IMG/VR virus record: IMGVR_UViG_3300045988_180775
Source: a virus
Reading direction: 5' to 3' (one strand)
Length of the DNA: 64,000 nt
Positions 7,665 to 62,855 of this stretch are shown piece by piece; the first letter of the stretch is position 1, and each line of letters opens with the position of its first letter. The notes beneath the pieces are model-generated. The model did no database searches, had not been told where the DNA came from, and saw nothing but the letters and a program-made list of their open reading frames with translations. A program made the position numbers and the translations under genes.

Positions 7665-8210
7665 TCAGTTCCAGCAGAGATTCCTGATTTCGCGGTCAGA
7701 CAGACCAATCGTTCCATCCAGCATCTCCGTCAAGAACTCATACTGCTCGTCGCCAGTCATGCGGTCGGCATACTCCAAAACATTGTGGATAATGCGACCC
7801 GCCGTGCCGTCGATGTCGAAGTTGTTCAGAAGCCACTCGTAAGTGCCTTCGAGGCCGCAGGCTTCAGTCTCCTCGTCATCTGTGTCGGCGTTGCCATTTT
7901 CAAGAGCGTCAGCAAGGTCGTTGAGCATCTCTTGGATGGCGTCAGCGTCTTCCACCAACGTCTTGATGTCTGGCACACCACTCACGCTGCCCTGCGCATC
8001 GACCAACATCTTGACGTGTTCCTCGGTATCGAAGCTGTCCGCGTAAGAACGGACTTCGGCTGCAAGACTCTCGGCGTCAGATGCGTCTTTCGTCAGAACC
8101 GTGAAGGAGAAATCTTCCCCCGCCGGACTGCACTGGTTAAATTCGATGCTATCGCTGTCCATATCGACTGCCCATCCGTAGCTTTCTGCAATTTGAATCA
8201 TTTTTTCCAT
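7665..8210 (-). CDS. acidic hypothetical protein (181 aa), first gene after cassette copy 2
   Basis: ORF with conserved cassette TIR AAAAAGGAGAATTAAAAAATG. Confidence 0.55.
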   Translation of the reverse strand: MEKMIQIAESYGWAVDMDSDSIEFNQCSPAGEDFSFTVLTKDASDAESLAAEVRSYADSFDTEEHVKMLVDAQGSVSGVPDIKTLVEDADAIQEMLNDLADALENGNADTDDEETEACGLEGTYEWLLNNFDIDGTAGRIIHNVLEYADRMTGDEQYEFLTEMLDGTIGLSDREIRNLCWN

Positions 8211-8381
8211 TTTTTAATTCTCCTTTTTTGAAATTTTTTTGATATATAAAAGCCAGCATCCGTATGGACGCTGACTGAATTTTCTTTGTGTTTGTGATAC
8301 TTCTTTTGTATGGTCTCAGCATACCGGCAGGCACGGAAAACTCCGCATTTTGCAAATTGGAACCTAAGAACCGAGGAACCT
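8211..8381 (-). promoter_or_regulatory. conserved intergenic cassette copy 2
   Basis: Hairpin B cagcatcc/ggacgctg at about 8256-8275, hairpin A 8309-8325, GGAACCTAAGAACCGAGGAACC at 8359-8380. Confidence 0.7.
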
Positions 8382-11458: not shown

Positions 11459-12205
11459 TTATGCAATTTGGAAATCGGCGTTTTTTACATAGTCTTCCGC
11501 TTTCTTCTGAAGCTGGTTGACCTTGCAAATCACGTTCTCCTCGTCGTCGATATCCTCGTAACTGCTGTCACAGCCGTCTACCACATTACCGTTTGCGGCA
11601 ATGTAGAGCGTATCGAAGGAAATGCTATCGTACTCCGTAGAGTAATCCGTTACCAGCTCGTCCATGTCGGTCCTGAGCACCTCCGGTGCTCTTACGCCGA
11701 TGCCGTTCTTGTTGGCACGGCCGGTATTGAGCAGCCAATTCAAATCGTCATCCTTGACCGAATGCTTTTTACCCCGGCCGAGGAAGGACAAGCCTCTCAG
11801 AATTTTCGCGTTGTCGTTGTCGCGGAACGCCTCGTGGAACATATCCACAGAGACATCGACCTCGCACATATCTGGCTCTTCCATCTTAGGATATGCCTCC
11901 AGCAGCGTCAGCGCGAGGTCGCGCATCTGCTCCTTCGACGCCGCTCCGTTGGTGGCAACGTAGAAAGAATTCGGCATCGTACCGTAACGCTCCGCAAGTT
12001 CAAAGTATCGCTTGATGGCCGGCACATTCAAAGATGGCTCGCCGCCCGTGAAAGTGACGGAACTGGGATAGATGTGCTTGGCGATTTCCGATAAGGTGGC
12101 TGTTGAAATGTCCAGATTCTGCGCATCTCCGCGCAGGCAGTGCTCGCATTTCATGTTGCAGCGCCGCGTGACCTCAATGACGAGGGACTCTACATGAATC
12201 TCCAT
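11459..12205 (-). CDS. radical SAM enzyme (CxxxCxxC; QueE/NrdG/viperin-like core)
   Basis: CNMKCEHC cluster motif at residues 16-23 and TFTGGEPSL glycine-rich SAM motif. First gene after cassette copy 3. Confidence 0.8.
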   Translation of the reverse strand: MEIHVESLVIEVTRRCNMKCEHCLRGDAQNLDISTATLSEIAKHIYPSSVTFTGGEPSLNVPAIKRYFELAERYGTMPNSFYVATNGAASKEQMRDLALTLLEAYPKMEEPDMCEVDVSVDMFHEAFRDNDNAKILRGLSFLGRGKKHSVKDDDLNWLLNTGRANKNGIGVRAPEVLRTDMDELVTDYSTEYDSISFDTLYIAANGNVVDGCDSSYEDIDDEENVICKVNQLQKKAEDYVKNADFQIA

Positions 12206-12385
12206 TTTTCATTTCTCCTTTTTTGTGATGGTTATGTGATATATAAAAGCCAGCACCCACGCGGACGCTGACTGAACTTTCTTTATGTTTGTGATACTTC
12301 CTTTGTATGGTCTGAGCATACCGGCGGAAGTGGAAAATGCCACATTCACCTTCCAAGAACCTGAGAACCGAGGAACTGGAGAACT
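12206..12385 (-). promoter_or_regulatory. conserved intergenic cassette copy 3
   Basis: Hairpin B cagcacccacgcggacgctg, hairpin A gtatggtctgagcatac, GAACCTGAGAACCGAGGAACTGGAGAAC at 12358-12385. Confidence 0.7.
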
Positions 12386-14693: not shown

Positions 14694-15392
14694 TCAGTCA
14701 CGCCAGTATGCGCCGTCTTTCGCTTCGCCCTTCGGGAAAACGGTATACTCTGTTCCGTGCAGCACGATGTACTCATGGTCCAGAACATTGGCAGAATCTC
14801 CAACGTCAATGGTCTGAATGTTGAATACCTGCTTTGTGTCCAGACAGACATCTGCCTTTGTCGCCGCAATGCAATTTCCGCCGTCCCAAACGGAGACATA
14901 AGGGATGTTGCGAACGATGGAAGGCTCTTCCTCAGTGCTCTGCTCAGCTTTCTCCAGAGCTGCCCGTACCTCGCCAATCTGCCAAGAAGGCATCAACGGG
15001 AATCCGGCTCTCGTATAGAGACCGCCGCCCGCCTCCGCCTTCTCCAAGGCGGCCTTTGCGGCGTCCTCGGATGCGAAGATGGTGTACTGGCTGACCTCGA
15101 TACCGGGCAAGTAGGAAAACGTCTTCGTTTTACCATCAGAGCATTCGACTTCGGTCATTCCCGAATAGGCAACGCCCGTCCAGCCAAACCAACCGGGTTC
15201 CACAAATTCGGAGAAGGTCACAGTAGACACCGTTACTTTTACGACCGCCAACTCTCTCGTGGACGGACGATACAGCCGACCGTATTTGTTGACTTTCTGC
15301 TTAAAGGTGATTGCGTACACCTCGGAGCCAATGCCGATGGGAACGCCGTCAGCAGTCTTGCACGCTGGTAAGAGATATGCCTTGTTCTTCAT
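14694..15392 (-). CDS. hypothetical protein (232 aa), first gene after cassette copy 4
   Basis: ORF with conserved TIR AAAAAGGAGAAACGAAAAAAATG. Confidence 0.55.
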   Translation of the reverse strand: MKNKAYLLPACKTADGVPIGIGSEVYAITFKQKVNKYGRLYRPSTRELAVVKVTVSTVTFSEFVEPGWFGWTGVAYSGMTEVECSDGKTKTFSYLPGIEVSQYTIFASEDAAKAALEKAEAGGGLYTRAGFPLMPSWQIGEVRAALEKAEQSTEEEPSIVRNIPYVSVWDGGNCIAATKADVCLDTKQVFNIQTIDVGDSANVLDHEYIVLHGTEYTVFPKGEAKDGAYWRD

Positions 15393-15570
15393 TTTTTTCG
15401 TTTCTCCTTTTTGTTTATGAAATTTTTATATATAAAAGCCAGCATCCGCAACGGACGCTGACTGAACTTTCTTTGTGTTTGAGATACTTCTTTTGTATGA
15501 TTTCAGCATACCGGCAGAAGAGAAAAAATCACCTATTTCCTGATGGAGAACCTAAGAATATGAGAACTCG
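15393..15570 (-). promoter_or_regulatory. conserved intergenic cassette copy 4
   Basis: Hairpin B cagcatccgcaacggacgctg, hairpin A gtatgatttcagcatac (variant), GAGAACCTAAGAATATGAGAAC at 15545-15568. Confidence 0.65.
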
Positions 15571-17070: not shown

Positions 17071-17442
17071 TCAAGCTGCCATCTGGTACAGCCATGCTTC
17101 AAAGTCTTCATAGTCCATCAGCCGTCCATCCACCTCGACGAATCCAGGCTGCGTTGTGCCGCGAACAACGGAAAAGGAATCTCCGCCGCCACAGAAAACG
17201 CGAATGTTCGTTCTGGAGATGCTCTCGCAGCGCAAGAAATACGAGCCGAGGCGTTCCCAAATTCGGGACATCTCCTCGTCGGTCGCTTCCCAACTGCGGT
17301 TTTGGCTGGTACGGACCTTTGTTGCGGATACGGACAACTCAACCTGCTCCGTATCTTCCGGCAGCCCAAGCTCCGCGCAGACCTCTTTCCACTTTGTTTC
17401 GTCACCGAAACCCCTCTTAAACATCATTGCTTTCATGTTCAT
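17071..17442 (-). CDS. hypothetical protein (123 aa), first gene after cassette copy 5
   Basis: ORF with conserved TIR AAAAAGGAGAAATGAACATG. Confidence 0.5.
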   Translation of the reverse strand: MNMKAMMFKRGFGDETKWKEVCAELGLPEDTEQVELSVSATKVRTSQNRSWEATDEEMSRIWERLGSYFLRCESISRTNIRVFCGGGDSFSVVRGTTQPGFVEVDGRLMDYEDFEAWLYQMAA

Positions 17443-17606
17443 TTCTCCTTTTTGTTTATGAATTTTTTATATATAAAAGCCAGCATCCGCAACGGACGCT
17501 GACTGAACTTTCTTTGTGTTTGAGATACTTCCTTTGTATGCTCTGAGCATACCGGCAAATATGGAAACACGCCTATTTTAATGTTGGGAACCTGAGAACC
17601 GAAGAA
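17443..17606 (-). promoter_or_regulatory. conserved intergenic cassette copy 5
   Basis: Near-identical to copy 4. GGGAACCTGAGAACCGAAGAATAC at 17586-17609. Confidence 0.7.
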
Positions 17607-17680: not shown

Positions 17681-17713
17681 AAAAAAACGCCGCCCATCTG
17701 GGCGGCGTTTCTT
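17681..17713 (-). terminator. rho-independent terminator after sigma gene
   Basis: aaaaaaacgccgcccatctgggcggcgtttctt. On minus strand the stem is followed by TTTTTTT. Confidence 0.75.
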
Positions 17714-18680
17714 ATTCAAGAAAGTCCTGAAGCATCTTCCCTGCCTTTCCGTTGCGTAGCTTATCGAGTGTTTTATCTGTAACCTGACGGACACGCTCTC
17801 GCGTTAAGTCCATTTCGTCCCCGATTTCTTTGAGGGTATAAGCACAACCATCCTCCAATCCGAATCGTAAGCGAAGCACACAGGCGTCTCGTGCGGGCAT
17901 ATCGTGCAGGATTTTGTCCATCGTTTCCCATAGTGCCTTCCCTGACGTTGAAATTTCCGGGTTATCCCACTCGTTATGGCTTGGGATGAATTCCGAAAGC
18001 GGTGTGTTGGAATCGCTTGCGGCGTCCGAATTGACGGGCGCATCCAACGAGTCCGGCTTCCGGTACTGGAGCGAGTGTTGGATGATGCGCAGTTTTTTCT
18101 GCTGCTCCCTTTTTGAAAGGGAATCCCACGCATCCCCCTCCATGTATTTTGCGATTTCTAAAGGGTCATCACAAGGTAAGCCTTTTTGCTGCATTTGTTC
18201 TTTTGCATTATTGACGCTCCGCCTGCCCTCCGCAACATAGATGGGCTTGCGAATGGCTGGGTCCGTCGTGGCAAGTGCTCTTGTGATGTTTTGCCTTATC
18301 CAGAAGGTTGCGTAGGTGGAGAACTTCACATTCCTCGAAATGTCAAAAGAGTCGATGGAACGCATGAGGCCGATGTTGCCCTCCTGAATGAGGTCCATGA
18401 ACACCATAGAATCGGCTGAGTTTATATATTTCTTTGCGATGGACACAACAAGCCGAAGATTGCCCTCAACAACCTTATCTTTCGCCCGTCTTCCTGCTTC
18501 TATGGCCTTCATCAGGTCTTTCTCGATTTCGGGGTCAACTGCATTCCCACTCTCCTCGGCAATCACCCGCAGCGTTTCGAGCTGTTCGGCAGCGGCATTC
18601 CCCTTCTGCGCTTTTTCAATACAGCGATTCGCTTCTACCTGCGGCATAATGGGGATGCTGCCAATTTGGCTGAGATACAT
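17712..18680 (-). CDS. RNA polymerase sigma-70 family factor (regions 1.2, 2, 3, 4), element-encoded
   Basis: DLIQEGNIGLMRSIDSFDISRNVKFSTYATFWIRQNITRALA (region 2.1-2.4). YTLKEIGDEMDLTRERVRQVTDKTLDKLR (region 4.2 HTH). VAMYLSQIGSIPIMPQ (region 1.2). Track start 18884 is a TTG inside the promoter -35, so I trimmed to ATG 18680 (GTG 18686 also possible). Confidence 0.85.
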   Translation of the reverse strand: MYLSQIGSIPIMPQVEANRCIEKAQKGNAAAEQLETLRVIAEESGNAVDPEIEKDLMKAIEAGRRAKDKVVEGNLRLVVSIAKKYINSADSMVFMDLIQEGNIGLMRSIDSFDISRNVKFSTYATFWIRQNITRALATTDPAIRKPIYVAEGRRSVNNAKEQMQQKGLPCDDPLEIAKYMEGDAWDSLSKREQQKKLRIIQHSLQYRKPDSLDAPVNSDAASDSNTPLSEFIPSHNEWDNPEISTSGKALWETMDKILHDMPARDACVLRLRFGLEDGCAYTLKEIGDEMDLTRERVRQVTDKTLDKLRNGKAGKMLQDFLE

Positions 18681-18855
18681 CGCCACATGGTCGCCGATAT
18701 TTCCCGGCTGCTTCGCTTCGGTCTCCTGTTCATTCGAAGCTGCGATTTCTTCTGTTTCAGGCTGCTTTTCAATGGCTTCATAGGCAAGCGCACGGTCAGC
18801 GGCTAAATTACTGGTATTCGTGATGTCAACCACCCCCCCTTCATTGAATGCAGCA

Positions 18856-18884
18856 ATTATACCACACAATAGCTTACTTGTCAA
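18856..18884 (-). promoter_or_regulatory. sigma-A-type promoter (TTGACA-17-TGGTATAAT) upstream of sigma gene
   Basis: Minus strand TTGACAagtaagctattgtgTGgTATAAT. Member of a 7-copy promoter family. Confidence 0.65.
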
Positions 18885-19956: not shown

Positions 19957-20311
19957 TTTGGTTGCTTCCTTCTCGCAGCAGAATCAAATTCATGACCCTC
20001 CATACCGTCCAGATACACAGATGGCGAACTATGCTTCTGCTGGTGCCGTGCAGGTCGGCGATTTGCGAAAACGTCATTCTGTCACGAAAATACTTTTGGA
20101 CGATATCGCGGTTTCGCTCAGGAAGTGTGTCCAGCGCTTCATCGAACATCTCGTTAAAGCCCGGTGTAAATGAAATTTGATTCTTACCCCAGGCTGAAAT
20201 TTGATTTTTACACCAGGCAAAGGATGTATCGTACATAATGGCCGCCTTCCGCCACTCCTCCGGGGCGAACTCAGGCTTGTTAATCTTGTCTGTCGTTTGT
20301 TTCTTTGTCAT
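19913..20311 (-). CDS. small sigma-70 region-4-like HTH protein (132 aa)
   Basis: LPERNRDIVQKYFRDRMTFSQIADLHGTSRSIVRHL resembles sigma region 4/ECF HTH. Trimmed to ATG 20311 with RBS GGAAGGAGAAACAAAA. Contains a 24-bp tandem duplication (20171-20218). Confidence 0.45.
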   Translation of the reverse strand: MTKKQTTDKINKPEFAPEEWRKAAIMYDTSFAWCKNQISAWGKNQISFTPGFNEMFDEALDTLPERNRDIVQKYFRDRMTFSQIADLHGTSRSIVRHLCIWTVWRVMNLILLREGSNQNAAPQTGGGTEGGY

Positions 20312-21404
20312 TTTTGTTTCTCCTTCCAACAATCTCTCTTCGTGAGCTGCGCCACAGCATGAGCAGCATCTCGCTGACCGGTCTGGTTCGGTCCTTCCTC
20401 ACGGCTTTCCTCACGCATCGCAGATGCCCGCCGTCCGGGCAAAGCACACCGACGCCGTATGGCACAGTATCCTTCACCGCTTCGAAGACGTCTGCGGGCA
20501 TAACGTAGTAGTTGTAGTCCGCGATGAAGTTGTGCCCGTTAGGAGATTTGAAATCCTCCACAGAGGACTTGACCTCGTAGGCGTAGAAGTCCCCCTTCTC
20601 AATGCCGGAGGTCGAATTGTTGAGCGGCTGAAAGCGCATATAGTCCACGCGGATTTTGTGGTTCGTAGAGTAGTCGAATGTGACCTCTCTCGCCCAGTAG
20701 ATGCGTGGGTCGTTGCGCGGGTCGATGTATCGCTCCAGCATGGCAGAGAGCTGGCGAGTGTGTTCCTTCCGGGTGAAGGCATCACTCGTTTCCGGACAGA
20801 ATTGAGCTGGCTTTCCAAGGATGAAATGGAACGGCAGAGCCTTTTCCAGTACGTCGATAATATTCTGAAGGGTCCCCTGCCCGCATTGGCGCAGATTCTT
20901 CAGTTTGCCGCTCTCTATCAGTCGAACAACATCGCCGATACTTTGGGCACCACTGAACATAAGGCAGTTCTTGGTGCGAGTCGAGAAATTGAGGCACTGA
21001 AACGGAACAGAATCGCACAACTCCTCGATTTTTTTCCGGTTGCCATTCTCAATGGCTTCCTTCAAAGCAGAGGCGAGAGGGCTGCCTGCAAACCGGCGCA
21101 TTTCTTTCAGGATACCCCCCGCATATTTGGGGTGACGCAGCCTCCTTATGGCGAGGTCGAAGCAAGAGTGGAACTTGCCGATGTCAATTTCCAGTGCGTT
21201 TGCGCATTGTGTTGGTGTAAGACCGTCGCGGTAGCGTTTTAAGATAGCTTCCCGCTCCAACTCAGGGAATGTGGCGATGGCAGCGTCTACAGCTGCGTCG
21301 AAAGAGTCGGAGAACTCAGCACACGGCATACACAAGCAATCCTGCATCAAATTCTTTCGCCATTCTACTGACGAGCGAAGCAGGAAACGCTCCTCAGTGT
21401 TCAT
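20280..21404 (-). CDS. three-part protein: sigma region-4-like HTH, then RNAP alpha-CTD-like helix-hairpin-helix, then C-terminal PD-(D/E)xK-like domain
   Basis: EREAILKRYRDGLTPTQCANALEIDIGKFH (region-4-like). LNFSTRTKNCLMFSGAQSIGDVVRL...LKNLRQCGQGTLQNIIDVL (alpha-CTD-like). GDFYAYEVKSSVEDFK (D..E.K nuclease-like). Confidence 0.55.
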   Translation of the reverse strand: MNTEERFLLRSSVEWRKNLMQDCLCMPCAEFSDSFDAAVDAAIATFPELEREAILKRYRDGLTPTQCANALEIDIGKFHSCFDLAIRRLRHPKYAGGILKEMRRFAGSPLASALKEAIENGNRKKIEELCDSVPFQCLNFSTRTKNCLMFSGAQSIGDVVRLIESGKLKNLRQCGQGTLQNIIDVLEKALPFHFILGKPAQFCPETSDAFTRKEHTRQLSAMLERYIDPRNDPRIYWAREVTFDYSTNHKIRVDYMRFQPLNNSTSGIEKGDFYAYEVKSSVEDFKSPNGHNFIADYNYYVMPADVFEAVKDTVPYGVGVLCPDGGHLRCVRKAVRKDRTRPVSEMLLMLWRSSRREIVGRRNKNDKETNDRQD

Positions 21405-53260: not shown

Positions 53261-54745
53261 TTAAGCAGAGGCCCCTTCACCGCCTGTGGCGGTTCTGATA
53301 GACAACAGATAGTCGTCAATTCCCTTGGTCTTATCAGACCAGTAGTGTTTCTCTTCCAGCCCATCTGCGTTTTTGACGCGGCTGTGCCGGATATTTCGCT
53401 TTGCAAGCTCCTGAGAAACATTTGCGAGGTCTGTGAACACGTTGAAGGTGGTCGGAACGAAAATGCCATGCTCACAACAGATGGCATTCAGTTCGCTGAG
53501 TTTCTGTTGTGCATATTCCGCATCCCAGCATTTCTCTGCAAGTTTGATGCCGTATCCTGCGGCAATGGCTCGAACACGCTTTCCCGCCTTTGCGACATTG
53601 ACATTTGTGACCTTATCCATGTCAAATACATTGAATACCGTTTCAACACCTTTGCCTTTCAGCCATGCGAAAATTGCTGGCAAGGTTTTGGTATTGGACG
53701 TTCCGTGCAGCGCAATGAAAAACATCTTTCGATTGCCCTTCAATTCAACTGCCGCATCCGCCTTGAGAGGGCCTTCCGTAATGCAGACAGCGGTTTCCGG
53801 GTCATCCAGGCTATCGTTCCCAAGTGGGAGATGCGCCTGACTGATATCCGTGGTAACGCCGTCTGGCAGGCCCTTCGCGGAGATGGTCATGTACCGAAGA
53901 AACTCCTTGTTCTGACCGGTACGCTTGCAGTAATCGTTCCAGTCGGACGGTTTATCCCGCCGTACTTGCAGGGCAACGATTTGACCTACCGCATTTCGTG
54001 TTGGAATCAGCATCCCAGGTTCAAGGTTGAAGCACCACACACCGTCTATCCGGAAAAAACCGGGTACGCCTCGCAGCTCGCATCCACATTTGGCAAGGAT
54101 GGAGGCCGCAATGAGACCTGCGATAAGCCGTTCTGGGGTACGGCGCTTGAGGATATTGTCCTTGCGAATAGACGGAATCAGCTTCTGATACTGCTCCTTC
54201 GCTTTCCGGTAACGGTTGACCCACGGAAAATCGGCCGAAATGCTTCGATACCCGTTTCGCTCAATCGCTTCATCGGAAAAGCCGCGCCTGTGCAGGTTCT
54301 CACGGTGCAGGTCGGAAAGCTGAAAGAACTTGATGTCCAAGAGCTTCCGATACGCCTTATCCACCACCTCGTCGCTGGCGCGGTGGATTTCCACGACCTC
54401 CGGGAGTTGTGCTTTCTGTACGCGGCTGCGAACTGGGGCTTCGATGTGCAGGTCGTCGCAGAGCTTTCGGTACATTTCCCTGCTGTTCTGTCCCTTGACA
54501 CAGCGAACGCCATGTGCAACGCGGGCATACAAGTCCAACGCACCTTGCCCCTTCTCACCCCCGGAGCATTTCACACACGAATACGCATTCTTCACGGTAT
54601 TGATATTCATGTGATATTTGGTGTCATTGCAAAACGGACAACGAACGTTGAAAGACGTCCCATTAAAATCCGATTGCGGAGACACCTTTAAGCCAAGCAG
54701 TTTGACAACCTCTCGGATGTCAATGCTGAATTTATCGTAGCCCAT
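53261..54745 (-). CDS. DNA primase (CHC2 zinc finger plus Toprim; conjugative TraC/DUF3991-like)
   Basis: CPFCNDTKYHMNINT...CVKCSGGEKG zinc finger. Toprim-like region with FDMD acidic motif. RBS GAAAGGAGCCTGCTCGG. Confidence 0.7.
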   Translation of the reverse strand: MGYDKFSIDIREVVKLLGLKVSPQSDFNGTSFNVRCPFCNDTKYHMNINTVKNAYSCVKCSGGEKGQGALDLYARVAHGVRCVKGQNSREMYRKLCDDLHIEAPVRSRVQKAQLPEVVEIHRASDEVVDKAYRKLLDIKFFQLSDLHRENLHRRGFSDEAIERNGYRSISADFPWVNRYRKAKEQYQKLIPSIRKDNILKRRTPERLIAGLIAASILAKCGCELRGVPGFFRIDGVWCFNLEPGMLIPTRNAVGQIVALQVRRDKPSDWNDYCKRTGQNKEFLRYMTISAKGLPDGVTTDISQAHLPLGNDSLDDPETAVCITEGPLKADAAVELKGNRKMFFIALHGTSNTKTLPAIFAWLKGKGVETVFNVFDMDKVTNVNVAKAGKRVRAIAAGYGIKLAEKCWDAEYAQQKLSELNAICCEHGIFVPTTFNVFTDLANVSQELAKRNIRHSRVKNADGLEEKHYWSDKTKGIDDYLLSIRTATGGEGASA

Positions 54746-54815: not shown

Positions 54816-55610
54816 TCAACCGGCTTTGCTCTGCGTAATGACCTGTGCAGCCTCATGCAGCTGCGGGTAAGTATCCCTGCGGGAGAAGCGGTCACTTGCG
54901 TAGAACTCCACCAGACTGCGGTCAATCGTCATCAGCTCACCAAGCGTCTTCTTGGCGTAGTTGCCGAACGGAACGATGACCTGTCTCGCCGCGTCAAGAG
55001 ACATCTGCGTATTCGCAGCCGCCTTTGCCGGGGCCTGTGTGGGCTGGGTGACGGGGGTGCTGGCCGCCGGACTGGTCGCCGGAATCATGGGGTTATTCTT
55101 GGAGGACGGAATCAGGGGATTCGTCTCCACGAAAGCAACGCCTTCATCGGGAGACGGAATGGAATCCGGGTCATTGGCTATGCCGGTGCTGATTTTGTAC
55201 GTCTTCATCAAAGCGTACTTATCGGCGTAGGTCATAGCCTTACCGGGAGCCTTATCTCCGGAATCCATACCCGTGCCGAAGCTAACGGTCTCCAGACAGT
55301 CTGTCGGCTCGTCAACGTTGACGAAACGGTAGACCTCAGTTACCGTCGCCATAACCAAGCGGACCAAACGCTGCTCACCGTTCCACATATACGGCTTCTC
55401 GACGATTTTCTGGTCGAGGGTGCGGCTGACCGCGTAAGAAAAGACGCCGTGCTTCTCTTCCAGCGGCTTGACTGCCGCAAGAATCGTAGCCTCGGAGGTT
55501 GCGCTGTACGCCTTATCCCCCTCACCAACGGTCAGGTCCTTGGCAATAGCGCCCAGTTCTGCGGTGATTGCCGCCACGCGCTGAAAAATGTTCTTATTGC
55601 TCATATTCAA
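54816..55610 (-). CDS. ERF-family single-strand annealing protein
   Basis: N-terminal IFQRVAAITAELGAIAKDL...KAYSATSEATILAAVKPLEEKHGV and GKAMTYADKYAL match ERF (PF04404) patterns as I recall them. Confidence 0.65.
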   Translation of the reverse strand: MNMSNKNIFQRVAAITAELGAIAKDLTVGEGDKAYSATSEATILAAVKPLEEKHGVFSYAVSRTLDQKIVEKPYMWNGEQRLVRLVMATVTEVYRFVNVDEPTDCLETVSFGTGMDSGDKAPGKAMTYADKYALMKTYKISTGIANDPDSIPSPDEGVAFVETNPLIPSSKNNPMIPATSPAASTPVTQPTQAPAKAAANTQMSLDAARQVIVPFGNYAKKTLGELMTIDRSLVEFYASDRFSRRDTYPQLHEAAQVITQSKAG

Positions 55611-56558
55611 TTAAACTCCTTCCTTCTGCCGCGCCAGATACTCCTGACGTTCGGCCTCCTTTTTGTTCTCTCCTTCGATGATGACGGGGATGCACATGGC
55701 ATTCTCCCACGTTTCGATGAAGCGTGTTACGCGATACATCATGCGGTACATATCGCGGTCAGAAACCTGGATAAATACCTCCACCTTGTTTCGCATGGAT
55801 TTTCCGTCGAATGTCGTGGCCCCGGTCGCCTGTTCAATCACCTTGGCCTCGCCGTTGGTGATTTTCAGGACCCAAGGATACATTGCAAGGTCTCCGTCCT
55901 GACGAACGCTGTCATGCGTGACTGTCAGCATAGACACCGGCGCAAATCCGTCCGTGCCTTTCTTGTAGGTATTGACCTTGGACATGGCATACTGGTAGTC
56001 CATTCGGTTCGGAAATTTGAGCGCAGTCCCAACGTCCGCATCCGCGATAGCAGTACGGGCTTCTTTCAGAACTGTGCCGGCTGCCATGAGGATATCCTTC
56101 TTTTCTGCTCCCTTAACGGCCTTGGCCACAATGCTTACGCTCTTGCTCAGAAGACTGCCATAAGCCTTTGCAACGCTGGCAGTGCGATGAATCGACTTCA
56201 TCAGACCATTGACAGCATTGGGGGCCAAAACAGTCTCCCAGGGCTTCTGCGCATCCTTCGCGACACGTCCAATCAGCGGAACAGCCATCGTACCGACATT
56301 GCAGCGGCAAACGGTGAGCCATTCGTCGAACATGGTCGGGTCAATATTCACAGAACAGGTGACACTTTTATCGCCCGTTCCCTTCGTGAAATCACAGATG
56401 ACCATTTCGATGACAGAGGGAAAGGTCTTTCCTCCATTTTTCTTGCCGCCAGACTGGTGCATCATCGCATACTCGTCAGGCAGCGACCGGCTCAGCTTGT
56501 CGCGAAAGTCAACGACTTTATCCTTGCCGTTACACTTGGTAATCACATTTGTTACCAT
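55611..56558 (-). CDS. hypothetical protein (315 aa), first gene after cassette copy 6
   Basis: ORF with cassette TIR GTAAGGAGAATCAGAAAAAATG. Confidence 0.55.
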   Translation of the reverse strand: MVTNVITKCNGKDKVVDFRDKLSRSLPDEYAMMHQSGGKKNGGKTFPSVIEMVICDFTKGTGDKSVTCSVNIDPTMFDEWLTVCRCNVGTMAVPLIGRVAKDAQKPWETVLAPNAVNGLMKSIHRTASVAKAYGSLLSKSVSIVAKAVKGAEKKDILMAAGTVLKEARTAIADADVGTALKFPNRMDYQYAMSKVNTYKKGTDGFAPVSMLTVTHDSVRQDGDLAMYPWVLKITNGEAKVIEQATGATTFDGKSMRNKVEVFIQVSDRDMYRMMYRVTRFIETWENAMCIPVIIEGENKKEAERQEYLARQKEGV

Positions 56559-56750
56559 TTTTTCTGATTCTCCTTACTTGTTATTTTTTGATTTATATAA
56601 AAGCCTGCGCCCGTTGGGTGCAGACTGAACTTTCATTATGTTTGTGATACTTCCTTTGTATGGTCTCAGCATACCGACCTTTTTCTCGCTTACAGAATTG
56701 CGCTGTGCAGGAATACAGGTTCTTAGGAATAGAAGTACCTAAGAACCAAA
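56559..56750 (-). promoter_or_regulatory. conserved intergenic cassette copy 6 (contains perfect 10-bp palindrome)
   Basis: Hairpin B ctgcgccc/gggtgcag (entirely different arm sequence, pairing preserved). Hairpin A gtatggtctcagcatac. GGTTCTTAGG-N10-CCTAAGAACC at 56718-56747. Confidence 0.7.
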
Positions 56751-56763
56751 GAAGGGCAAAAAG

Positions 56764-56788
56764 AAATCCGGGCCAGAAGGCCCGGATT
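56764..56788 (-). terminator. rho-independent terminator after VWA gene
   Basis: aaatccgggcc-agaa-ggcccggattt. On minus strand the stem is followed by CTTTTTGCCC. Confidence 0.65.
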
Positions 56789-56791
56789 ATC

Positions 56792-58933
56792 TCAAATATT
56801 GCGCAGAATCCTCTTCTTCACCATCCCTGTGAGCATCTTCGGAAATTTGCTCAGGTCGGTGATGTCGAGAAAGCCGTCACCGTAAATTGCCTGGATGTGC
56901 TCCTTGTCGTTGCCAATAGCTGCCGCAAAAACCTCGATACCGTTCCGTCGTGCGGATTTCACGATATTCTGGATATCTGCTCTGGCACTACTGCCGGAAT
57001 AGTTTCCGTCATTAGGCTGTCCATCGCTGATGACAAACATCAGCTTGACCTCCTCCGGTCTCTTTGCAAGAAGGCCAACGGAGGCTGCGATGGCAGCGCC
57101 ATCACGGTTACAGCCCCCTGTGCTCAGTTTGGCAAGCCGGAAGGCATCCTGCTTCCCGATGGCATCAAAGCGGGAGAACACATAGTATTCGGCACATCCC
57201 CTTGTCTGGGTATTGTGGCCGGCAACCATGACTGGAATGCCCAGTCCCGTCGCAAAGTCATAGAGCAGCATGGCCGCCCGCATTGCGGAGTTCATCCGTG
57301 CGCCCTGCATGGAGCCGGACATATCAACCAAAACGCTGACCGCCATAGACGGATAGTCCTGCGGCAGCTTCTTGCTGGCATAGAACTTCTGGTCCGGACG
57401 ATAGGCATTCTTGATTTCAAGACGGTTGCCAATGATGCGGTGATGAAGGATAGAACCCTGCTGGATATCAGCCAGAGCTTCCCGAATGAGTTTCTGAAGC
57501 CTGCGGGAATATCCCTTCAGGTCAGCCATCTGCCGCTCATACAGCTTTTTGTCCTGCTCTGTAACGCCTAAGATGCGATGGGGCCTGATATGGCCTCGAT
57601 GCGTGGGGCCAAGCTCCAACTGGGGGATTTCTGCCATCAGGTCGGACGTAATGTCCGCCTCCAGCTTTTCCTCCGCCTTCTGGTCGCTGATGCCCCGTGC
57701 AATAGCTTCCAAGGCCTCTTTGATTTGCTTGTCCGTCCCACTCGTATTCGCCGAAGCCTTCGTTTGGGGGGAAGTTTTCTGTCCGCCTTGCGCCTGCTGA
57801 CCCTTTTGGGCCTGCTTGCGATTTGCGGAAGCAACTTTGGACGTGGACTGGTTCTGCGGGGCGGCGTTCGCACCGGTATTCGATGCGGTCTGAGCAAGGC
57901 CGTTTACAACAGCCTGAATAGCAGCGGCAGAATGATTCATCGACTGAGTGTTGCCGGAGCTGTTCGGATTCCCGCTTCCAGGATTTCCGTTCGAGCCGGT
58001 CTGCCCGTCGCTGGAATCGCCGTTGCTGTTGCTCTGGGGATTTCCCGCTCCCGTCTGATTCTGTTGCTGTTCCGCTTCATCCAGGGCCTCTTTGATGATG
58101 GGCCACATGATAAGAAAGATTTCGTTGATTTGCGTAAAACGATATGCAACGTCATCTGTCCATCTGGCCTGACTCAAGGGCTTTGCCATGTCAATGACCA
58201 TCTTCATGATGTCGTTGTCACGCACGCACTGTTCAAGGTCTCTTGCGAAGACATCCTCGAATCGGGCAAACTCAAGCATCAGGGCATAGAGCTTTTGCAG
58301 CTTGGTTGCCTTATCATTTGCGAGGATGTTTTCCGCATAATCGAAACTGCGGAACAGGGCCTCACGCGATGTTGCGATTCCCTTTTCCACTATGCCGCCG
58401 AACTCGTCGATGATTTTGCCTTCATCGTGCGGGTCATCAATGGTGTTGGTCACATCGTTGAAAATCTGCTGAAACAGTGGCCGGTACGCACTGTTCTGAA
58501 GCGCGTCCTTCATTTCAGTCAATGCGTCAACCTCTGCCTGAGTCTTTGGCACCGGCAGTTCTCCGTAGAACTCTCCGGCCTTGATTTTATCAATGGCCTT
58601 CTGCTCCTCTGCAAAATCGCAATAAATGATATGTGCAATTTCGTGGAAATGGATACCCAGCAGAGCCGTAAACTTGGCATAGATGTCATTGTACGCCTCC
58701 GTGATGGTATTTTCAGGTACGAGATACTCCTTCTTTCCGTCCGTCCAGCCTGGTGCAATGCCTGTCGGCAGAATTGTCAGGGACAGTCGCTTAGTGATGC
58801 CGCAATGCCGCAACAGCGTCTCCCCCATCTTTTGCAGATAGCTGGAAAACTCAGCGGAGTGGAAGATTTCTTCGGAACTCAAGTTCTTGCGCTCTTCAGA
58901 ACTCAGCTTCCTGAGCTGGTGTTCGTATTTCAT
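56792..58933 (-). CDS. VWA-domain protein (MIDAS DxSxS) with N-terminal HExxH motif; CobT-like partner of AAA+ ATPase
   Basis: VLVDMSGSMQGARMNSAMRAAMLL (VWA MIDAS). FHEIAHIIYCDF (HExxH). Gln/Gly/Asn-rich linker. Confidence 0.7.
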   Translation of the reverse strand: MKYEHQLRKLSSEERKNLSSEEIFHSAEFSSYLQKMGETLLRHCGITKRLSLTILPTGIAPGWTDGKKEYLVPENTITEAYNDIYAKFTALLGIHFHEIAHIIYCDFAEEQKAIDKIKAGEFYGELPVPKTQAEVDALTEMKDALQNSAYRPLFQQIFNDVTNTIDDPHDEGKIIDEFGGIVEKGIATSREALFRSFDYAENILANDKATKLQKLYALMLEFARFEDVFARDLEQCVRDNDIMKMVIDMAKPLSQARWTDDVAYRFTQINEIFLIMWPIIKEALDEAEQQQNQTGAGNPQSNSNGDSSDGQTGSNGNPGSGNPNSSGNTQSMNHSAAAIQAVVNGLAQTASNTGANAAPQNQSTSKVASANRKQAQKGQQAQGGQKTSPQTKASANTSGTDKQIKEALEAIARGISDQKAEEKLEADITSDLMAEIPQLELGPTHRGHIRPHRILGVTEQDKKLYERQMADLKGYSRRLQKLIREALADIQQGSILHHRIIGNRLEIKNAYRPDQKFYASKKLPQDYPSMAVSVLVDMSGSMQGARMNSAMRAAMLLYDFATGLGIPVMVAGHNTQTRGCAEYYVFSRFDAIGKQDAFRLAKLSTGGCNRDGAAIAASVGLLAKRPEEVKLMFVISDGQPNDGNYSGSSARADIQNIVKSARRNGIEVFAAAIGNDKEHIQAIYGDGFLDITDLSKFPKMLTGMVKKRILRNI

Positions 58934-58999
58934 ATTCTTTCTCCTTTTTCAGAGAATGGGGACCATGCGGCCCCCATTCTCAGCGTATTGTGTGGAAAA

Positions 59000-60751
59000 T
59001 CAGAGATACAGGTCCACAACGGAACCCATAATCTCCTCTTGCTCCTCTACGACAGAAGTTGCCTTCGACACGACGCAGCAGCGGCAGTTCTCACGGACAT
59101 TACTCATGCCATCGACCTGTACCGACTGTGCCCACATCTCAAGCTCCGTCGCAGAGATAGAGCCTTCCGTAATATCATTCTCCTTGCAGTGCTTGGAAAT
59201 TGCCAGCCAGACCGTATACATCTTCTCCAGCAAATCCTTGTCAGGGAAACCGGTGTTATACCGAACACGGGCCAACAGCGTCTCCTTCGTCAGCTCATAA
59301 GAGTCAATGACGAAAGCACAGCGACGGATTACGGACGGGTCAACCGGACGACAGGAAGCATAGCCGACGTTATCGGTATAAACAACCATCGCATCCGGAT
59401 GACGGCGCACGAAGCGCCCATCAACCAGCGGAATCATCGCCCCTGCGCGGTCGTATTCGTTCAGACCGACGAGCACGCCAGCGTCGCGGATACGGGAAAT
59501 CTCCTGTACCTCAACGATGTAGCCGTGTTCCAGCGCCTTGACATAGTTCGACTCAACGAACTTGTAGCGCGCCACAGAGCCGTTACTCGCCGCCGCCTTG
59601 CCATACGCCTCAAGGGCCATCTGGCAGGTCGCGTCTTCGTCCTCCACGCCGGTGAGCTTGAAGTAAGCACTGGCGGGGTCCGCCGCGATTTCCGCGAAGT
59701 CAGGCAGTTCCGCTGTGTGCGCCCCATCCGTATCGGGAATGATATCGGAGAGGAAGTTCTGCGTCTCCATCGTGGAATTGCACGTCATACGCAGCAGCGG
59801 GATATTCAGGAACCCAGCCATCAGTTCAACACCCGTGGACTTACCATAGGAGGTAATGCCGCGCCACATGAAGTTATTCATGGGACGCTTATCCTTTCTG
59901 GTATTCACGAACTTTTTGGCAATGTCGATTGCCTCCGGCGCGACGGGATAATCGTCTGGGAACTGAGGAATGAGCGCCCGCTCCGCCGCTGACCAGCTGT
60001 GACTGGCTGCGAACGCGGAAAACAGCTTCTTTGCGCTTGCGAATGTGTGCGCCTTTGTTGCTGTTACGCGGATACTGCCGCACAGGACACACGCCTTGCC
60101 GCACAGCTCCGTGCCGGACAGAGAACCGCTTTTGACGCTGGTTCCCGTGAGGATATCAATATTCCCACCGGGAACCTTGACCTCGACCTCGTTGTTGTTC
60201 AGCATCACCACCAGCGTGTCGCAGATGCGGCGGAAACAGCCCTCGTCAAAAGGCGTTCCCGCGTTATACTGCTGCGTGATAGCGTTGAGGTCAGTACCAA
60301 CACCGTTCCAAATGGAAGTGGCGATAGGCAACAGGCACAGATAGATAGGTGCGAGGTTGACCTCGCAGCTTCGGTCAATCGTGGGGAGCGACGTAAAGGT
60401 ATAGTCCGCAGTTCCCACAACCGGCTTCGCAATGGCCGCACGAAGGCGGACCGTCTTGCCGTTCGGGTCCGGACGGTTCACCGTCGCAATCAGGACCGTA
60501 CCATCCGCCTGCGGAAGCTCCGCTGCGTAGGTAGAGCCGCCGACATCGACCAGCGCCATATCAGCGTGTTCGCCCTTCATCCATGCCACAACCGCCTGTG
60601 CGGCGTATGCGTTCAACGCGACATTGCCGCCACCGTTTCGGAGTGCCGAGAACATAGCTGGCTCCTTTACTGTCGGAGCATAGTTCTGAACCTCTTTCGG
60701 GAATCTGGCAACTGACCAACTGGCAGACGGCGTATTCAAAGTGTGATTCAT
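59000..60751 (-). CDS. AAA+ ATPase, MoxR/CobS-like (AAA_5-type)
   Basis: Walker A RGITSYGKSTG with downstream acidic Walker B region. Size and pairing with the VWA gene are typical of MoxR-VWA / CobS-CobT pairs. Confidence 0.6.
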   Translation of the reverse strand: MNHTLNTPSASWSVARFPKEVQNYAPTVKEPAMFSALRNGGGNVALNAYAAQAVVAWMKGEHADMALVDVGGSTYAAELPQADGTVLIATVNRPDPNGKTVRLRAAIAKPVVGTADYTFTSLPTIDRSCEVNLAPIYLCLLPIATSIWNGVGTDLNAITQQYNAGTPFDEGCFRRICDTLVVMLNNNEVEVKVPGGNIDILTGTSVKSGSLSGTELCGKACVLCGSIRVTATKAHTFASAKKLFSAFAASHSWSAAERALIPQFPDDYPVAPEAIDIAKKFVNTRKDKRPMNNFMWRGITSYGKSTGVELMAGFLNIPLLRMTCNSTMETQNFLSDIIPDTDGAHTAELPDFAEIAADPASAYFKLTGVEDEDATCQMALEAYGKAAASNGSVARYKFVESNYVKALEHGYIVEVQEISRIRDAGVLVGLNEYDRAGAMIPLVDGRFVRRHPDAMVVYTDNVGYASCRPVDPSVIRRCAFVIDSYELTKETLLARVRYNTGFPDKDLLEKMYTVWLAISKHCKENDITEGSISATELEMWAQSVQVDGMSNVRENCRCCVVSKATSVVEEQEEIMGSVVDLYL

Positions 60752-60773
60752 AGTTTCTTTCTCCTTTCACTCA

Positions 60774-60959
60774 TTAACGGGCGTTTGCAGCAGACAGATT
60801 CCGCCACACGCGAAACAGATGCGCGAGATAACTCTCCGCTTCCTGTCTCTCCATGAAACCGGAACCCGTCAGGTACTTCATTGCACTTTCCTTGCTGCCA
60901 CGGGATTCGCCGTCGATGACATAACCCATTGCTTTCGTAAAGTAGTCGTTTGTAAACAT
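60774..60959 (-). CDS. small hypothetical protein (61 aa), first gene after cassette copy 7
   Basis: ATG 60959 preceded by conserved TIR AAAAAGGAGAAATGAAAAAATG. The track ORF extension to 61277 runs through the cassette and was rejected. Confidence 0.4.
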   Translation of the reverse strand: MFTNDYFTKAMGYVIDGESRGSKESAMKYLTGSGFMERQEAESYLAHLFRVWRNLSAANAR

Positions 60960-61150
60960 TTTTTCATTTCTCCTTTTTGTTTTGTGTGATTTGGGATATA
61001 TAAAAAGCCAGTATCCGTAAAGGATGCTGACTGAACTTTCTTTATGTTTGCGATACTTCTTTTGTATGGTCACAGCATACCGGCCTTTTTGCCATTTGCA
61101 GAATTGTGATAAACAGGAATACAGGTTCCTGAGTTCCGAGGTGCCTGAGT
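60960..61150 (-). promoter_or_regulatory. conserved intergenic cassette copy 7 (GGTTCC motif in inverted orientation)
   Basis: Hairpin B cagtatcc/ggatgctg, hairpin A gtatggtcacagcatac. CAGGAATACAGGTTCCTGAGTTCCGAGG at 61114-61141, shared with copy 6. Confidence 0.7.
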
Positions 61151-61158
61151 GTTTCGGC

Positions 61159-61205
61159 AAAAAAACAGCAGCACCCATCCGGTATGGATAGATGCCGCTG
61201 GAAGA
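61159..61205 (-). terminator. imperfect hairpin plus T7 run after membrane protein gene
   Basis: cagcagcacccatcc-ggtat-ggatagatgccgctgg (12 of 15 positions pair, 3 mismatches) followed on minus strand by TTTTTTT. Confidence 0.45.
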
Positions 61206-61210
61206 TGTAC

Positions 61211-61774
61211 TCACATCTGCAAATAGGCATATAACAGATGCGGTGTTTTTTCGTTGATGTAGACGAGATATGGGCAATTCGGATAAAACGTCACCTTGCG
61301 GGGAAGTGTAAAGGTGAAATAAGACGGAACATCATCGTCTGTCCGGAAACACACTTTCGTGGAGCCTTTCAATCCGTTGGAAATTGCATTTGTCTGTACG
61401 CTGTAGCAAATCATCGGCAGTTCCCTAATAGTGCCGTCCTTAAAATCCAACCGCAGAGAAACCGCACAGTATAGAAGATAGACGGGGAAAAGAAGAAACA
61501 TGAGCAGCCGCACGGATAGAAGCGTGATGGACAACACGATGACTGTCAGCGTCATCAGTACCGCGACCGTACAGAGCATGACTTCCTTGGACTGCAAGGC
61601 GGTCGGCAGCTCGATGTCCCGCAGCTCCTGCCAGATAGATTTCTTCTCCCCCTCCGGTTCCGGTGCCGAGTCCGAAGCCTGTTTCCCTGCGGCATTTTCG
61701 GCCCGATTGGCGTCATCCTGCTCCAGCAGGGCACGGAGATGCGGGAATTCAATAATTTTTGACTTCTTCGGCAT
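61211..61774 (-). CDS. membrane protein (187 aa)
   Basis: Trimmed to ATG 61774 with RBS GGGAGGTAGTC. Two TM helices (LCTVAVLMTLTVIVLSITLL, LLMFLLFPVYLLYCAV). Confidence 0.5.
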   Translation of the reverse strand: MPKKSKIIEFPHLRALLEQDDANRAENAAGKQASDSAPEPEGEKKSIWQELRDIELPTALQSKEVMLCTVAVLMTLTVIVLSITLLSVRLLMFLLFPVYLLYCAVSLRLDFKDGTIRELPMICYSVQTNAISNGLKGSTKVCFRTDDDVPSYFTFTLPRKVTFYPNCPYLVYINEKTPHLLYAYLQM

Positions 61775-62855
61775 GACTACCTCCCAAAAGCGGTTCACCG
61801 TTTATCGTGAGTGAGTGGAAATATTCGTATGTTTTGGGCGTGCTTTTTTTCAGAAGCTGCATGGACTTGCTGCCATCCGAATGTGTCAGCAGATAAGCGA
61901 AATAATCTGCAAAATATTCGTTGCTGCTTGTTTTGGCATAGCTGCGGAAGGGTGCATCTTTTGCTTCTGCGTTGAAGAGTTCCTGACTTCTGGCAGGAAA
62001 GCTGAGCAGTTCCCCTTCTATAAAATGCCCGAACTCATGCAGGACTGCCCCCGCTTCCGAAACATAAATGGTTCGCTCCTGATAGCTGGTGACGCCGGTG
62101 CAGGACACATTATACAGCTTGCCCATTTTCGCCGTATACGCATGGTCGATAACGAGCTTCCATCCGTGCTCATTGAACGCATTGAGGACGGTATCCGGAA
62201 GATAGCGCAGTTCCATAAGATAATCGTTGAGATTCGCGTCAGAGCGATTTTCGCACACGACCGGAGATTTAGGCGCTTCGACCACAAATTGATGTGTCAA
62301 TGTCTCATATAGATAGACAGCCGCCTCTCCCCTCGTTACTCTTTCACCTACGGTCGAGGACGCAGAACATAAGCCCAGCTCTTGTCCAACACGCAGGACA
62401 TTTTCCTCACGGATAAGTGCCTTCCCTCCATAGAGTACATTGTCGTAGACCGGTATCTGTGCGGCATCGAACGCACTTTCCAGAACCGCACTCCGGCAGA
62501 GTTGTGTTTCTGGTGAGACGACAGCAGTCTCACTCAGCCAACCGTTGCCGTAAGCAGCATCCACGCCGCTCTGACTCTGCTCCATCCATCCATTGCCTTT
62601 CATTTGGACACCATAGGCTCGGCAGAGCATGACCGCCCATTGCCGAACGGTAATGGGGGCGTCCGGGGAGAACTGGCCGACGCCAGTCCCTGTGACGATT
62701 TGCCGTTCTGAGTGATAGACAACGCTATCATGATACGGTGCCGTTTCTGGCACATCGGAAAAGCCGGCGTCAGTGGCAGACGCTGTAACGGGAAAAGTCA
62801 GTATCAGCGCCAGAGTAAGAATTGCCAGCGCTGTCCTTCGCAGACCTCGAAACAT
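61749..62855 (-). CDS. secreted SLH-domain zinc metalloprotease (HExxH)
   Basis: Signal peptide MFRGLRRTALAILTLALILTFPVTASA. SLH-like segment (GQFSPDAPITVRQWAVMLCRAYG). VLHEFGHFIEGE zinc-binding motif. Confidence 0.65.
   Translation of the reverse strand: MFRGLRRTALAILTLALILTFPVTASATDAGFSDVPETAPYHDSVVYHSERQIVTGTGVGQFSPDAPITVRQWAVMLCRAYGVQMKGNGWMEQSQSGVDAAYGNGWLSETAVVSPETQLCRSAVLESAFDAAQIPVYDNVLYGGKALIREENVLRVGQELGLCSASSTVGERVTRGEAAVYLYETLTHQFVVEAPKSPVVCENRSDANLNDYLMELRYLPDTVLNAFNEHGWKLVIDHAYTAKMGKLYNVSCTGVTSYQERTIYVSEAGAVLHEFGHFIEGELLSFPARSQELFNAEAKDAPFRSYAKTSSNEYFADYFAYLLTHSDGSKSMQLLKKSTPKTYEYFHSLTINGEPLLGGSHAEEVKNY

Follow-up and report, generated by a model that had tools for sequence, protein, structure and literature searches.

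The results of this work suggest that the virus-listed DNA stretch IMGVR_UViG_3300045988_180775 of IMG/VR (64,000 nucleotides (nt), analysed whole and called here the window) carries a unit of three genes, for a protein of 61 amino acids (aa), a 583-aa AAA+ ATPase and a 713-aa protein with a von Willebrand factor A (VWA) domain, the last two of which are, judging by their sequences, a mobile-element CobS/CobT-like MoxR-VWA pair with a metallopeptidase N-terminal domain, housed in a Clostridial integrative conjugative element (ICE). The reading preferred here, held tentatively and as somewhat short of probable, is that the trio would form a CobS/CobT-type AAA+/VWA remodeller/protease used in establishment or in evasion of host defences. 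The architecture of the pair and one phenotype are already published; three features come in with the Clostridial ICE pair: a third, small protein, an ATPase N-terminal domain that is novel, and a Walker B of atypical form. The first-pass annotation, made from the letters of the window, had described the three open reading frames (ORFs), the motifs GITSYGKST, FHEIAHII and DMSGS, a Q/G/N-rich linker, and a MoxR-class AAA+/VWA pair lying on a transfer element. All of this holds: the ORF listing returns the three frames at the same coordinates on the minus strand, the motifs and the linker are present, the nearest relatives of solved structure are CbbQ (for the ATPase) and NorD/CobT (for its partner), genes of type IV secretion system (T4SS) kind (VirD4, VirB4-like, TrbC) lie in the window, and the order small ORF, ATPase, VWA recurs in related elements down to ~38% identity and beyond.

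[quoted passage not shown] Conservation of the HExxH in homologues had been set beforehand as a point on which the first reading was to be judged, and on this point the reading stands; invariance of this kind means that the motif is no chance tetrad. H97, E98 and H101 stand on a helix (84-104) that follows strands 51-71, N163-x3-D167-x3-E171 is placed on a second helix (148-178), and the candidates for the third metal ligand are the invariant D167 or E171, or D106 (85%). The domain has a zincin fold with a conserved metallopeptidase-type site, its fold similarity being generic to small zincins. At E<=1e-3 a profile of the domain reaches 916 clusters (50% identity), and at E<=1e-10 it still reaches 680; with few exceptions these are proteins of 650-830 aa in which the domain is N-terminal.

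The metalloprotease-like motif had at first been taken for something added and special to this element, and this part of the earlier account falls, as the same motif is found in an IncC plasmid, a Klebsiella phage-plasmid and a distant gut contig, and the architecture is known in jumbo phages. Rather than an addition, the HExxH is part of the ancestral CobT-type N-terminal domain, in which the mobile-element clade keeps the catalytic residues. The whole signature, HExxHxxxxDF…NxxxDxxxE with a low-complexity linker and then a MIDAS VWA domain behind it, is carried by the gut contig (L007, MT835792, labelled 'Bacteriophage sp.'; 26% identity), by the phage-plasmid, whose N-terminal domain is similar at motif level (hidden Markov model E = 21), and by a 598-aa IncC protein; in the last two, 15-20 residues separate the second His of the HExxH from the N of NxxxDxxxE. 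Pfam CobT PF06213 recognises the N-terminal domain in both the IncC and the phage-plasmid protein; the window protein stays below threshold for this model. No profile match linked the window domain to the NorD, CbbO or CobT chains in PDB, where the phage-plasmid domain, used as query, found no CobT chain either. The idea that the domain would be Pfam DUF2201_N/DUF2201 (a metallopeptidase with a VWA-like part) was rejected, these models being absent in 13 members even at E<=5.

It is at this site that a first alternative has to be weighed, namely that the pair is a non-proteolytic remodeller or metal-insertion chaperone of the CobST, NorQD or CbbQO kind, whose site binds a metal or keeps the fold and whose N-terminal domain is a docking or client-binding module only. 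The characterised relatives are all remodellers and not proteases, CobT_N, itself M48C-like, serves docking on CobS and CobN, and the radical-SAM and other metalloenzyme genes on the element are possible clients. The invariance of the general base E98 and of the acidic pair D167/E171 is, however, the pattern expected for catalysis rather than for docking; one Agrobacterium NorD lacks the HExxH, and the known clients CobN, NorB and Rubisco have no family match among the window ORFs that were scanned (nine near the trio and ~30 larger ones elsewhere, hereafter the scanned ORFs). We consider this alternative improbable.

Behind the N-terminal domain, the linker of the 713-aa protein differs in length and sequence between homologues and has its counterpart in the disordered linker of CobT and NorD, and the helical region 401-529 probably provides, by analogy, the 'shaft/finger' entering the AAA+ pore. 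The C-terminus matches Pfam CobT_C at 39.4 bits (cut-off 21; 6.9e-10) and VWA at 31.8 bits (2.1e-7), again above cut-off, and a comparison of the protein with PDB gives NorD (4e-6) and CobT (1.3e-3). Two metagenome-predicted 'fusions' (P0036, P0043) are 99-100% identical to the protein over 24-42% of its length, and parts of it are joined in them to domains of SMC/AAA_15-like or T4SS coupling-protein type; wrong assembly or gene calling on short contigs is the probable cause.

The ATPase has no significant match in Pfam, PHROGs, NCBIfam or PADLOC (Pfam AAA_5 scores 15.4 bits against a cut-off of 22, and is weak in 8 of 15 homologues), so its family assignment rests on sequence matches in PDB, where phmmer finds CbbQ (5c3c at 1.2e-8, 6l1q at 4.6e-6) over residues 294-572. 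Among 123 ATPases, K304 of Walker A is invariant and the catalytic E417 of Walker B is retained throughout, whilst N461 and R476/R477, which align with 'syNPgy' (sensor-1) and 'stkqR' (Arg-finger region) of CbbQ, are 99-100% conserved, as is R495. The Walker B itself reads IVEVQE (E-h-Q-E) and not the canonical hhhhDE: Q416, which aligns with the Asp of CbbQ, is present in 122 of these sequences, the remaining one being gapped there. At this position the IncC homologue (L022 5687-6655) has Asn, and the ATPase of the Klebsiella phage-plasmid keeps DE. CbbQ and the IncC ATPase have ~50 residues fewer between Walker A and Walker B than the window protein, whose N-terminal domain is hypervariable among family members. 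In one otherwise syntenic relative (L002 7378-9948) the ATPase gene is split into ORFs of 466 and 173 aa, which may reflect a frameshift, a pseudogene or an assembly error.

The trio is a discrete unit, since terminator-like hairpins bracket it and copy 7 of a repeated cassette precedes the 61-aa ORF; each of the three ORFs has an AAGGAGA-type ribosome-binding site before it. Its genes are real and not chance ORFs, because they have database homologues (45 proteins were retrieved for the 713-aa protein and 263 for the 583-aa one), a recurring order and a conserved small ORF. The order is found in four near-identical loci at 49% identity and in one at 38%, and also in more distant members of 795-1148 aa, one of which adjoins a Rep3 replication gene. 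Positional homologues of the small protein share 34-41% identity with it in L001, L005 and L014, and 21% in the most distant, L013, and a search of Pfam, PHROG, NCBIfam and PADLOC gave no match for it. On the IncC plasmid a hypothetical gene for a 61-aa product (L022 5282-5467) sits in the same position, ~220 nt upstream of the AAA gene; it has no detectable sequence similarity to its window counterpart.

The N-terminal domain occurs in ICEs, plasmids (one with Rep3), phage-plasmids, phages and archaeal viruses, a spread that speaks for a function shared by invading DNA of every kind. The first 135 residues of the phage-plasmid VWA protein match 1,816 plasmid records, pMT1-type and IncC among them, and the model of the window domain matches, by fold, the N-termini of 'VWFA/CobT-like' proteins of phages and haloarchaeal viruses. 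In L007 the order is single-stranded DNA-binding protein (SSB), 300-aa gene, ATPase, helix-turn-helix (HTH) gene, VWA, and the HTH gene that stands between the ATPase and zincin-VWA genes (3671-3937) is of XRE type. Enterococcus faecium p114-2 (L006 11956-14184), tried as a further case of the same system, was rejected, because its 742-aa fused AAA-VWA protein has no HExxH; the AAA+ and VWA parts of this fusion are related to those of the window, and it adjoins a DUF6530 gene in a metabolic, non-transfer context.

If NorQD and CobST complexes are a fair template, the ATPase would form a hexameric motor into whose pore the VWA protein puts its shaft or finger, with its C-terminus and N-terminal domain docked on the ring; ATP turnover would then twist or stretch the linker, and the client would be gripped between the MIDAS face and the N-terminal domain. 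Each part of this template has its counterpart in the window proteins, including the conserved C-terminal tail. As the N-terminal domain keeps the invariant catalytic set, this predicted live metallopeptidase would probably cut the client as well as help to remodel it, which would make the machine a split, VWA-adapted analogue of an AAA+ protease. Target recognition or regulation would fall to the ATPase's variable N-terminal domain and to the 61-aa protein. The trio would act in the cytoplasm of the newly entered host, neutralising a host factor such as a restriction complex, and would belong to one establishment/defence-evasion gene set with the single-stranded DNA (ssDNA)-annealing protein and the primase.

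Establishment or defence evasion is favoured because the domain is widespread, because it is linked to SSB, annealing and primase genes, and because the ATPase of IncC acts on the recipient side. In the IncC plasmid pVCR94, Vcrx089 (CbbQ_C/AAA_5) and Vcrx090 are encoded in the hde operon with ssb-bet-exo, deletion of both genes lowers transfer into a restricting Vibrio cholerae recipient 25-fold, and the defect is complemented only by expression in the recipient, the process being evasion of type I restriction (Roy et al. 2020). This is the only experimental precedent, and it makes less likely the roles first suggested for the trio, maturation of the transfer machinery and a defence/abortive function. 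The former belongs to a wider alternative, in which the trio is an assembly or maturation chaperone-protease for the structures of its own carrier, that is the T4SS, pilus or relaxosome of an ICE and the virion of a phage. The same architecture was published with an assembly proposal for jumbo phages (PMC7824862), a virion role is reported for the MoxR-vWA pair of Acidianus two-tailed virus, and the trio is itself a component of the syntenic backbone, not cargo, lying 3-4 kb upstream of the TrbC-type pilin and T4SS genes. Even so, the domain set is found in elements that share neither virions nor a T4SS, its nearest neighbours are ssDNA and replication genes and not structural ones, the three proteins are by inspection without signal peptides, and the IncC ATPase works in the recipient. 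By this analysis establishment/defence evasion would be preferred over pilus or virion assembly, and the assembly role is judged unlikely.

Several points weigh against a role in establishment or evasion. Proteolysis, ATPase activity and complex formation are all predicted from sequence, and, since CobT_N purely docks, the domain may, for all its conserved Glu, play no catalytic part. The family-wide change of the Walker B Asp to Gln means that ATP turnover may be slow or switch-like. The homology of the window ATPase to Vcrx089 is remote (24% identity over 197 residues), Vcrx090 has no BLASTP similarity among the proteins of the window region or of the related loci (nor has the IncC DUF3150 protein), and the genes listed as depleted in the IncC study are vcrx089-093 only, the VWA gene going unmentioned there (Roy et al. 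2020). PADLOC gave no match for the five proteins tested. Finally, no origin of transfer (oriT) was found in the window and no relaxase among the scanned ORFs, so that a placement of the trio in an 'early or leading region' lacks footing, and the cassette before the trio does not have the look of a single-strand promoter.

Two other targets or roles can be imagined. The predicted protease could act on a DNA-bound or regulatory protein of the element itself, either a strand-attached relaxase, by analogy with SprT/Wss1 and Cdc48, or an XRE-type repressor, by analogy with ImmA/ImmR. The generic fold similarity noted above, the failure to detect a DNA-binding domain, the lack of a relaxase gene among the scanned ORFs and the restriction of the HTH gene to L007 among the loci examined make this quite improbable. 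A defence or abortive-infection cargo of the MoxR-vWA 'ternary conflict system' kind, a scheme into which three components and an effector-like peptidase fused to a vWA domain would fit, is highly improbable given that neither a PADLOC match nor a VMAP-, iSTAND- or FtsH-like component was identified, that the trio keeps a conserved backbone position at 38-50% identity and does not occupy a variable hotspot, and that phages themselves carry relatives.

A bolder form of the establishment/evasion reading, which we hold to be doubtful, is that the Vcrx089-type ATPase has its so far unrecognised partner in the zincin-linker-VWA protein, and that the two make up an ATP-driven protease against host defences that is shared across the mobilome, by Clostridial ICEs, IncC/SXT, SSU5/pMT1-like phage-plasmids, tailed phages and archaeal viruses. 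Such a machine would seize a restriction/nuclease complex through the MIDAS and the variable N-terminal domain of the ATPase, and would unfold and cut it as the DNA enters a new cell. If true, the 'CobS/CobT' genes of phages and plasmids, long unexplained, would thereby acquire a function. Pairs of this MoxR/VWA type rank with the most widespread genes of unexplained function in phages, phage-plasmids and conjugative elements, their carriers include IncC/SXT, which spread multidrug resistance, and pMT1-type plasmids, and in unrelated elements they recur beside genes for ssDNA recombination and replication. Together with the recipient-side anti-restriction phenotype published for the IncC ATPase, these findings offer a testable hypothesis of function for a large family (at least 916 clusters at 50% identity), and they may point to a target through which the host range of conjugative elements could be limited.

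Table 1. Features of the trio, its surroundings and the repeated cassette (window coordinates)
Feature	Position	Strand	Remarks
Cassette copies 1-6	1957-2136, 8192-8371, 12189-12368, 15379-15558, 17420-17599, 56542-56721	-	
Primase-like protein	53261-54745	-	DUF3854 and CHC2 zinc finger match weakly
ERF-family single-strand annealing protein	54816-55610	-	Pfam ERF 1.5e-9
315-aa protein	55611-56558	-	No assigned function; separate unit behind cassette 6; conserved neighbour of the VWA gene
Terminator-like hairpin	56765-56788	-	10 pairs (7 G-C), then T-run; directly after the VWA stop codon
VWA protein gene, 713 aa	56792-58933	-	ORF
VWA domain and conserved C-terminal tail	56792-57346	-	MIDAS DMSGS at 57311-57325, NRDG, SDGQP
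Helical pre-VWA region, residues 401-529	57347-57733	-	Conserved columns; aligns with NorD from residue 388
Q/S/N/A/G-rich low-complexity linker, residues 289-400	57734-58069	-	By composition
Zincin-fold N-terminal domain	58070-58933	-	
NxxxDxxxE	58421-58447	-	Within the N-terminal domain
HExxHxxxxDF	58613-58657	-	Within the N-terminal domain
ATPase gene, 583 aa	59000-60751	-	ORF
AAA+ core, CbbQ/NorQ/CobS (MoxR) type	59000-59881	-	phmmer against PDB
RR motif	59321-59326	-	
Sensor-1 TDN	59369-59377	-	
Walker B (GYIVEVQEISR)	59492-59524	-	
Walker A (GITSYGKST)	59834-59860	-	
ATPase N-terminal domain, residues 1-290	59882-60751	-	Fast-evolving; no solved-fold match
61-aa ORF	60774-60959	-	Starts at an ATG inside a longer ORF that begins with TTG; third component, conserved, with DYF..MG.VI motif
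Cassette copy 7	60960-61150	-	GGAAC repeats, core, hairpin, then ribosome-binding site; from the alignment of seven copies
Cassette copy 7, span as given with copies 1-6	60948-61127	-	
Terminator-like hairpin	61166-61200	-	15-pair stem, then T-run; ends the upstream unit of a 195-aa membrane protein gene

Downstream of the trio the window has, in this order, the 315-aa gene, the ERF gene (two genes away) and the primase-like gene, and relatives keep the same backbone of a ~315-aa protein, ERF, primase-like protein and TrbC pilin; no exonuclease or SSB was identified adjoining the trio in the window. The homologue of the 315-aa gene directly follows the VWA gene in L001 (12373-13293, 38% identity), in L016 (13759-14730, 31%) and also in the distant L007 (6068-6754; E 1e-9 to 1e-13). 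PDB and Pfam gave no match for the protein; its constant place beside the VWA gene, which extends to the most distant relative, makes it a candidate for a fourth functional partner.

All sizeable ORFs of the window are on the minus strand. According to the ORF scan they encode, besides the TrbC-type pilin, a VirD4-type coupling protein, a VirB4-like ATPase, a CHAP/lysozyme protein, a UvrD helicase and a uracil-DNA glycosylase, as well as the element's own sigma-70-family protein (17712-18884) and a protein with an alpha C-terminal domain (20280-21404). The locus is found at 99% identity inside a 571-kb contig of Oscillospiraceae bacterium CM18GR_63, and a relative at 49% identity inside a 1-Mb scaffold of Pseudoflavonifractor sp.; because both lie within large bacterial contigs, the element is most likely an ICE of a gut Oscillospiraceae host. 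The viral label is questioned by the presence of a T4SS and by the absence of virion genes from the scanned ORFs, and a comparison with annotated plasmids and phages yielded no near-identical DNA. Related IMG/VR contigs of 86-147 kb (L010-L012) are likewise catalogued as viral, which is either a misclassification or a sign of a phage-like part of the element outside view. The element also encodes two SLH-domain (cell-wall-anchored) proteins (61749-62855 and 2679-4433), one with an anthrax-lethal-factor-like (ATLF) metallopeptidase domain and the other with a beta-lactamase-fold domain.

The trio had also been described as an operon driven by the cassette. A three-gene unit does stand behind copy 7, but that the cassette drives it is unproven, since the cassette looks like a leader with a terminator-like hairpin. 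Its seven copies in the window are all on the minus strand, each just before a ribosome-binding site. They share a near-invariant core of ~95 nt (beginning at 61084 in copy 7) that ends, ~25 nt before the ribosome-binding site, in an 11-bp hairpin and a U-run (hairpin of copy 7 at 61006-61032), and the hairpin shows three compensatory pairs among the copies. In copy 7 the conserved 5′ end is able to pair with the 3′ arm of the hairpin, a possible antiterminator pairing. No sigma-70 consensus and no Rfam match were found for the cassette, which therefore resembles, in its sequence features, a regulatory leader or an attenuator and not just a promoter, and may be an undescribed attenuator or antitermination target. 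An Frpo-like single-strand promoter was ruled out, the ssDNA fold of the cassette being no better than that of shuffles (z -0.53). The GGTTC repeats upstream of the core are inverted in copies 6 and 7. A second intergenic repeat, ~37-55 nt in each case (18851, 25893, 30470, 32772, 43519 and 44173), is on the minus strand a canonical TTGACA-N17-TGxTATAAT promoter, and the element seems, from these two repeats, to use two promoter or leader classes.

Amongst the known systems, the best solved-structure matches are those of NorQ-NorD and CbbQ-CbbO, which share the arrangement of N-terminal domain, linker and VWA domain; in NorQD a finger enters the pore, the linker after the N-terminal domain is unresolved and the C-terminal tail docks on the ring. 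The Agrobacterium NorD compared differs in that it does not match the N-terminal-domain profile. In the cobaltochelatase, CobT_N is a three-stranded sheet with helices, peptidase M48C-like, followed by a disordered linker of ~90 residues, whilst the CobT shaft sits in the ring and CobT_N binds both the small subdomain of CobS and the client CobN (2026 CobSTN preprint). The kinship with CobS/CobT pairs first proposed for the trio stands as far as the CobT_C match and the common layout of M48C-like N-terminal domain, disordered linker, shaft and VWA domain are concerned; the pair is not a cobaltochelatase, as no CobN or cobalamin gene is present among the scanned ORFs. The group 2.2 jumbo phages have a MoxR protein paired with an N-terminal-metallopeptidase-vWA protein, for which a virion assembly role was proposed (Iyer et al. 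2021, PMC7824862). Compared by its description, this is the same two-protein architecture, there too recognised by sequence analysis alone; the window element, however, has a T4SS and no virion genes among the scanned ORFs, and its 61-aa partner, ATPase N-terminal domain and VQE Walker B are undescribed in that paper.

ArdC, the antirestriction protein of R388, has a metalloprotease domain as well, but it differs in having an ssDNA-binding domain and neither an AAA+ nor a VWA partner, and there is no relation in sequence. The ternary conflict systems are like the trio in that a third protein accompanies a MoxR-vWA couple whose vWA component bears fused effector domains; they are encoded on the chromosomes of multicellular bacteria, and their partners are VMAP, iSTAND or FtsH (Kaur et al. 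2020).

MoxR(CbbQ) and VWA genes have long been known as shared backbone genes of pCAR1, R478, Rts1, SXT and R391. Deletion of s063 in SXT lowers transfer ~100-fold; its identity as the ATPase homologue is not confirmed, and it is not used here as evidence. On the IncC plasmid the co-directional order is AAA, 302-aa gene, ssb, bet, exo, DUF3150, VWA, and both ends of this array find their counterparts in the window: the AAA protein at the Vcrx089 position matches the window ATPase in BLASTP at 2e-6, and the VWA protein matches the 713-aa protein at 3e-7 over linker and VWA and at 3e-4 over the TDG…HExxH segment. The two systems differ in that the IncC ATPase has 322 aa and no N-terminal domain, that five genes split the pair there, that Bet/Exo stand there in the place of ERF, that the window unit includes the 61-aa protein, and that the known anti-restriction phenotype belongs to Vcrx089-090 only and not to the IncC VWA protein. 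They are alike in a homologous AAA+ core, in a VWA protein with HExxHxxxxDF…NxxxDxxxE, a Q/G/N-rich linker and a MIDAS, in an amide replacing the Walker B Asp (N in IncC, Q in the window family), and in the linkage of the pair to an ssDNA-annealing recombinase on a conjugative element. What this work adds to the known systems is the linking of zincin-VWA proteins, hde-type ATPases and recombination genes across very different elements.

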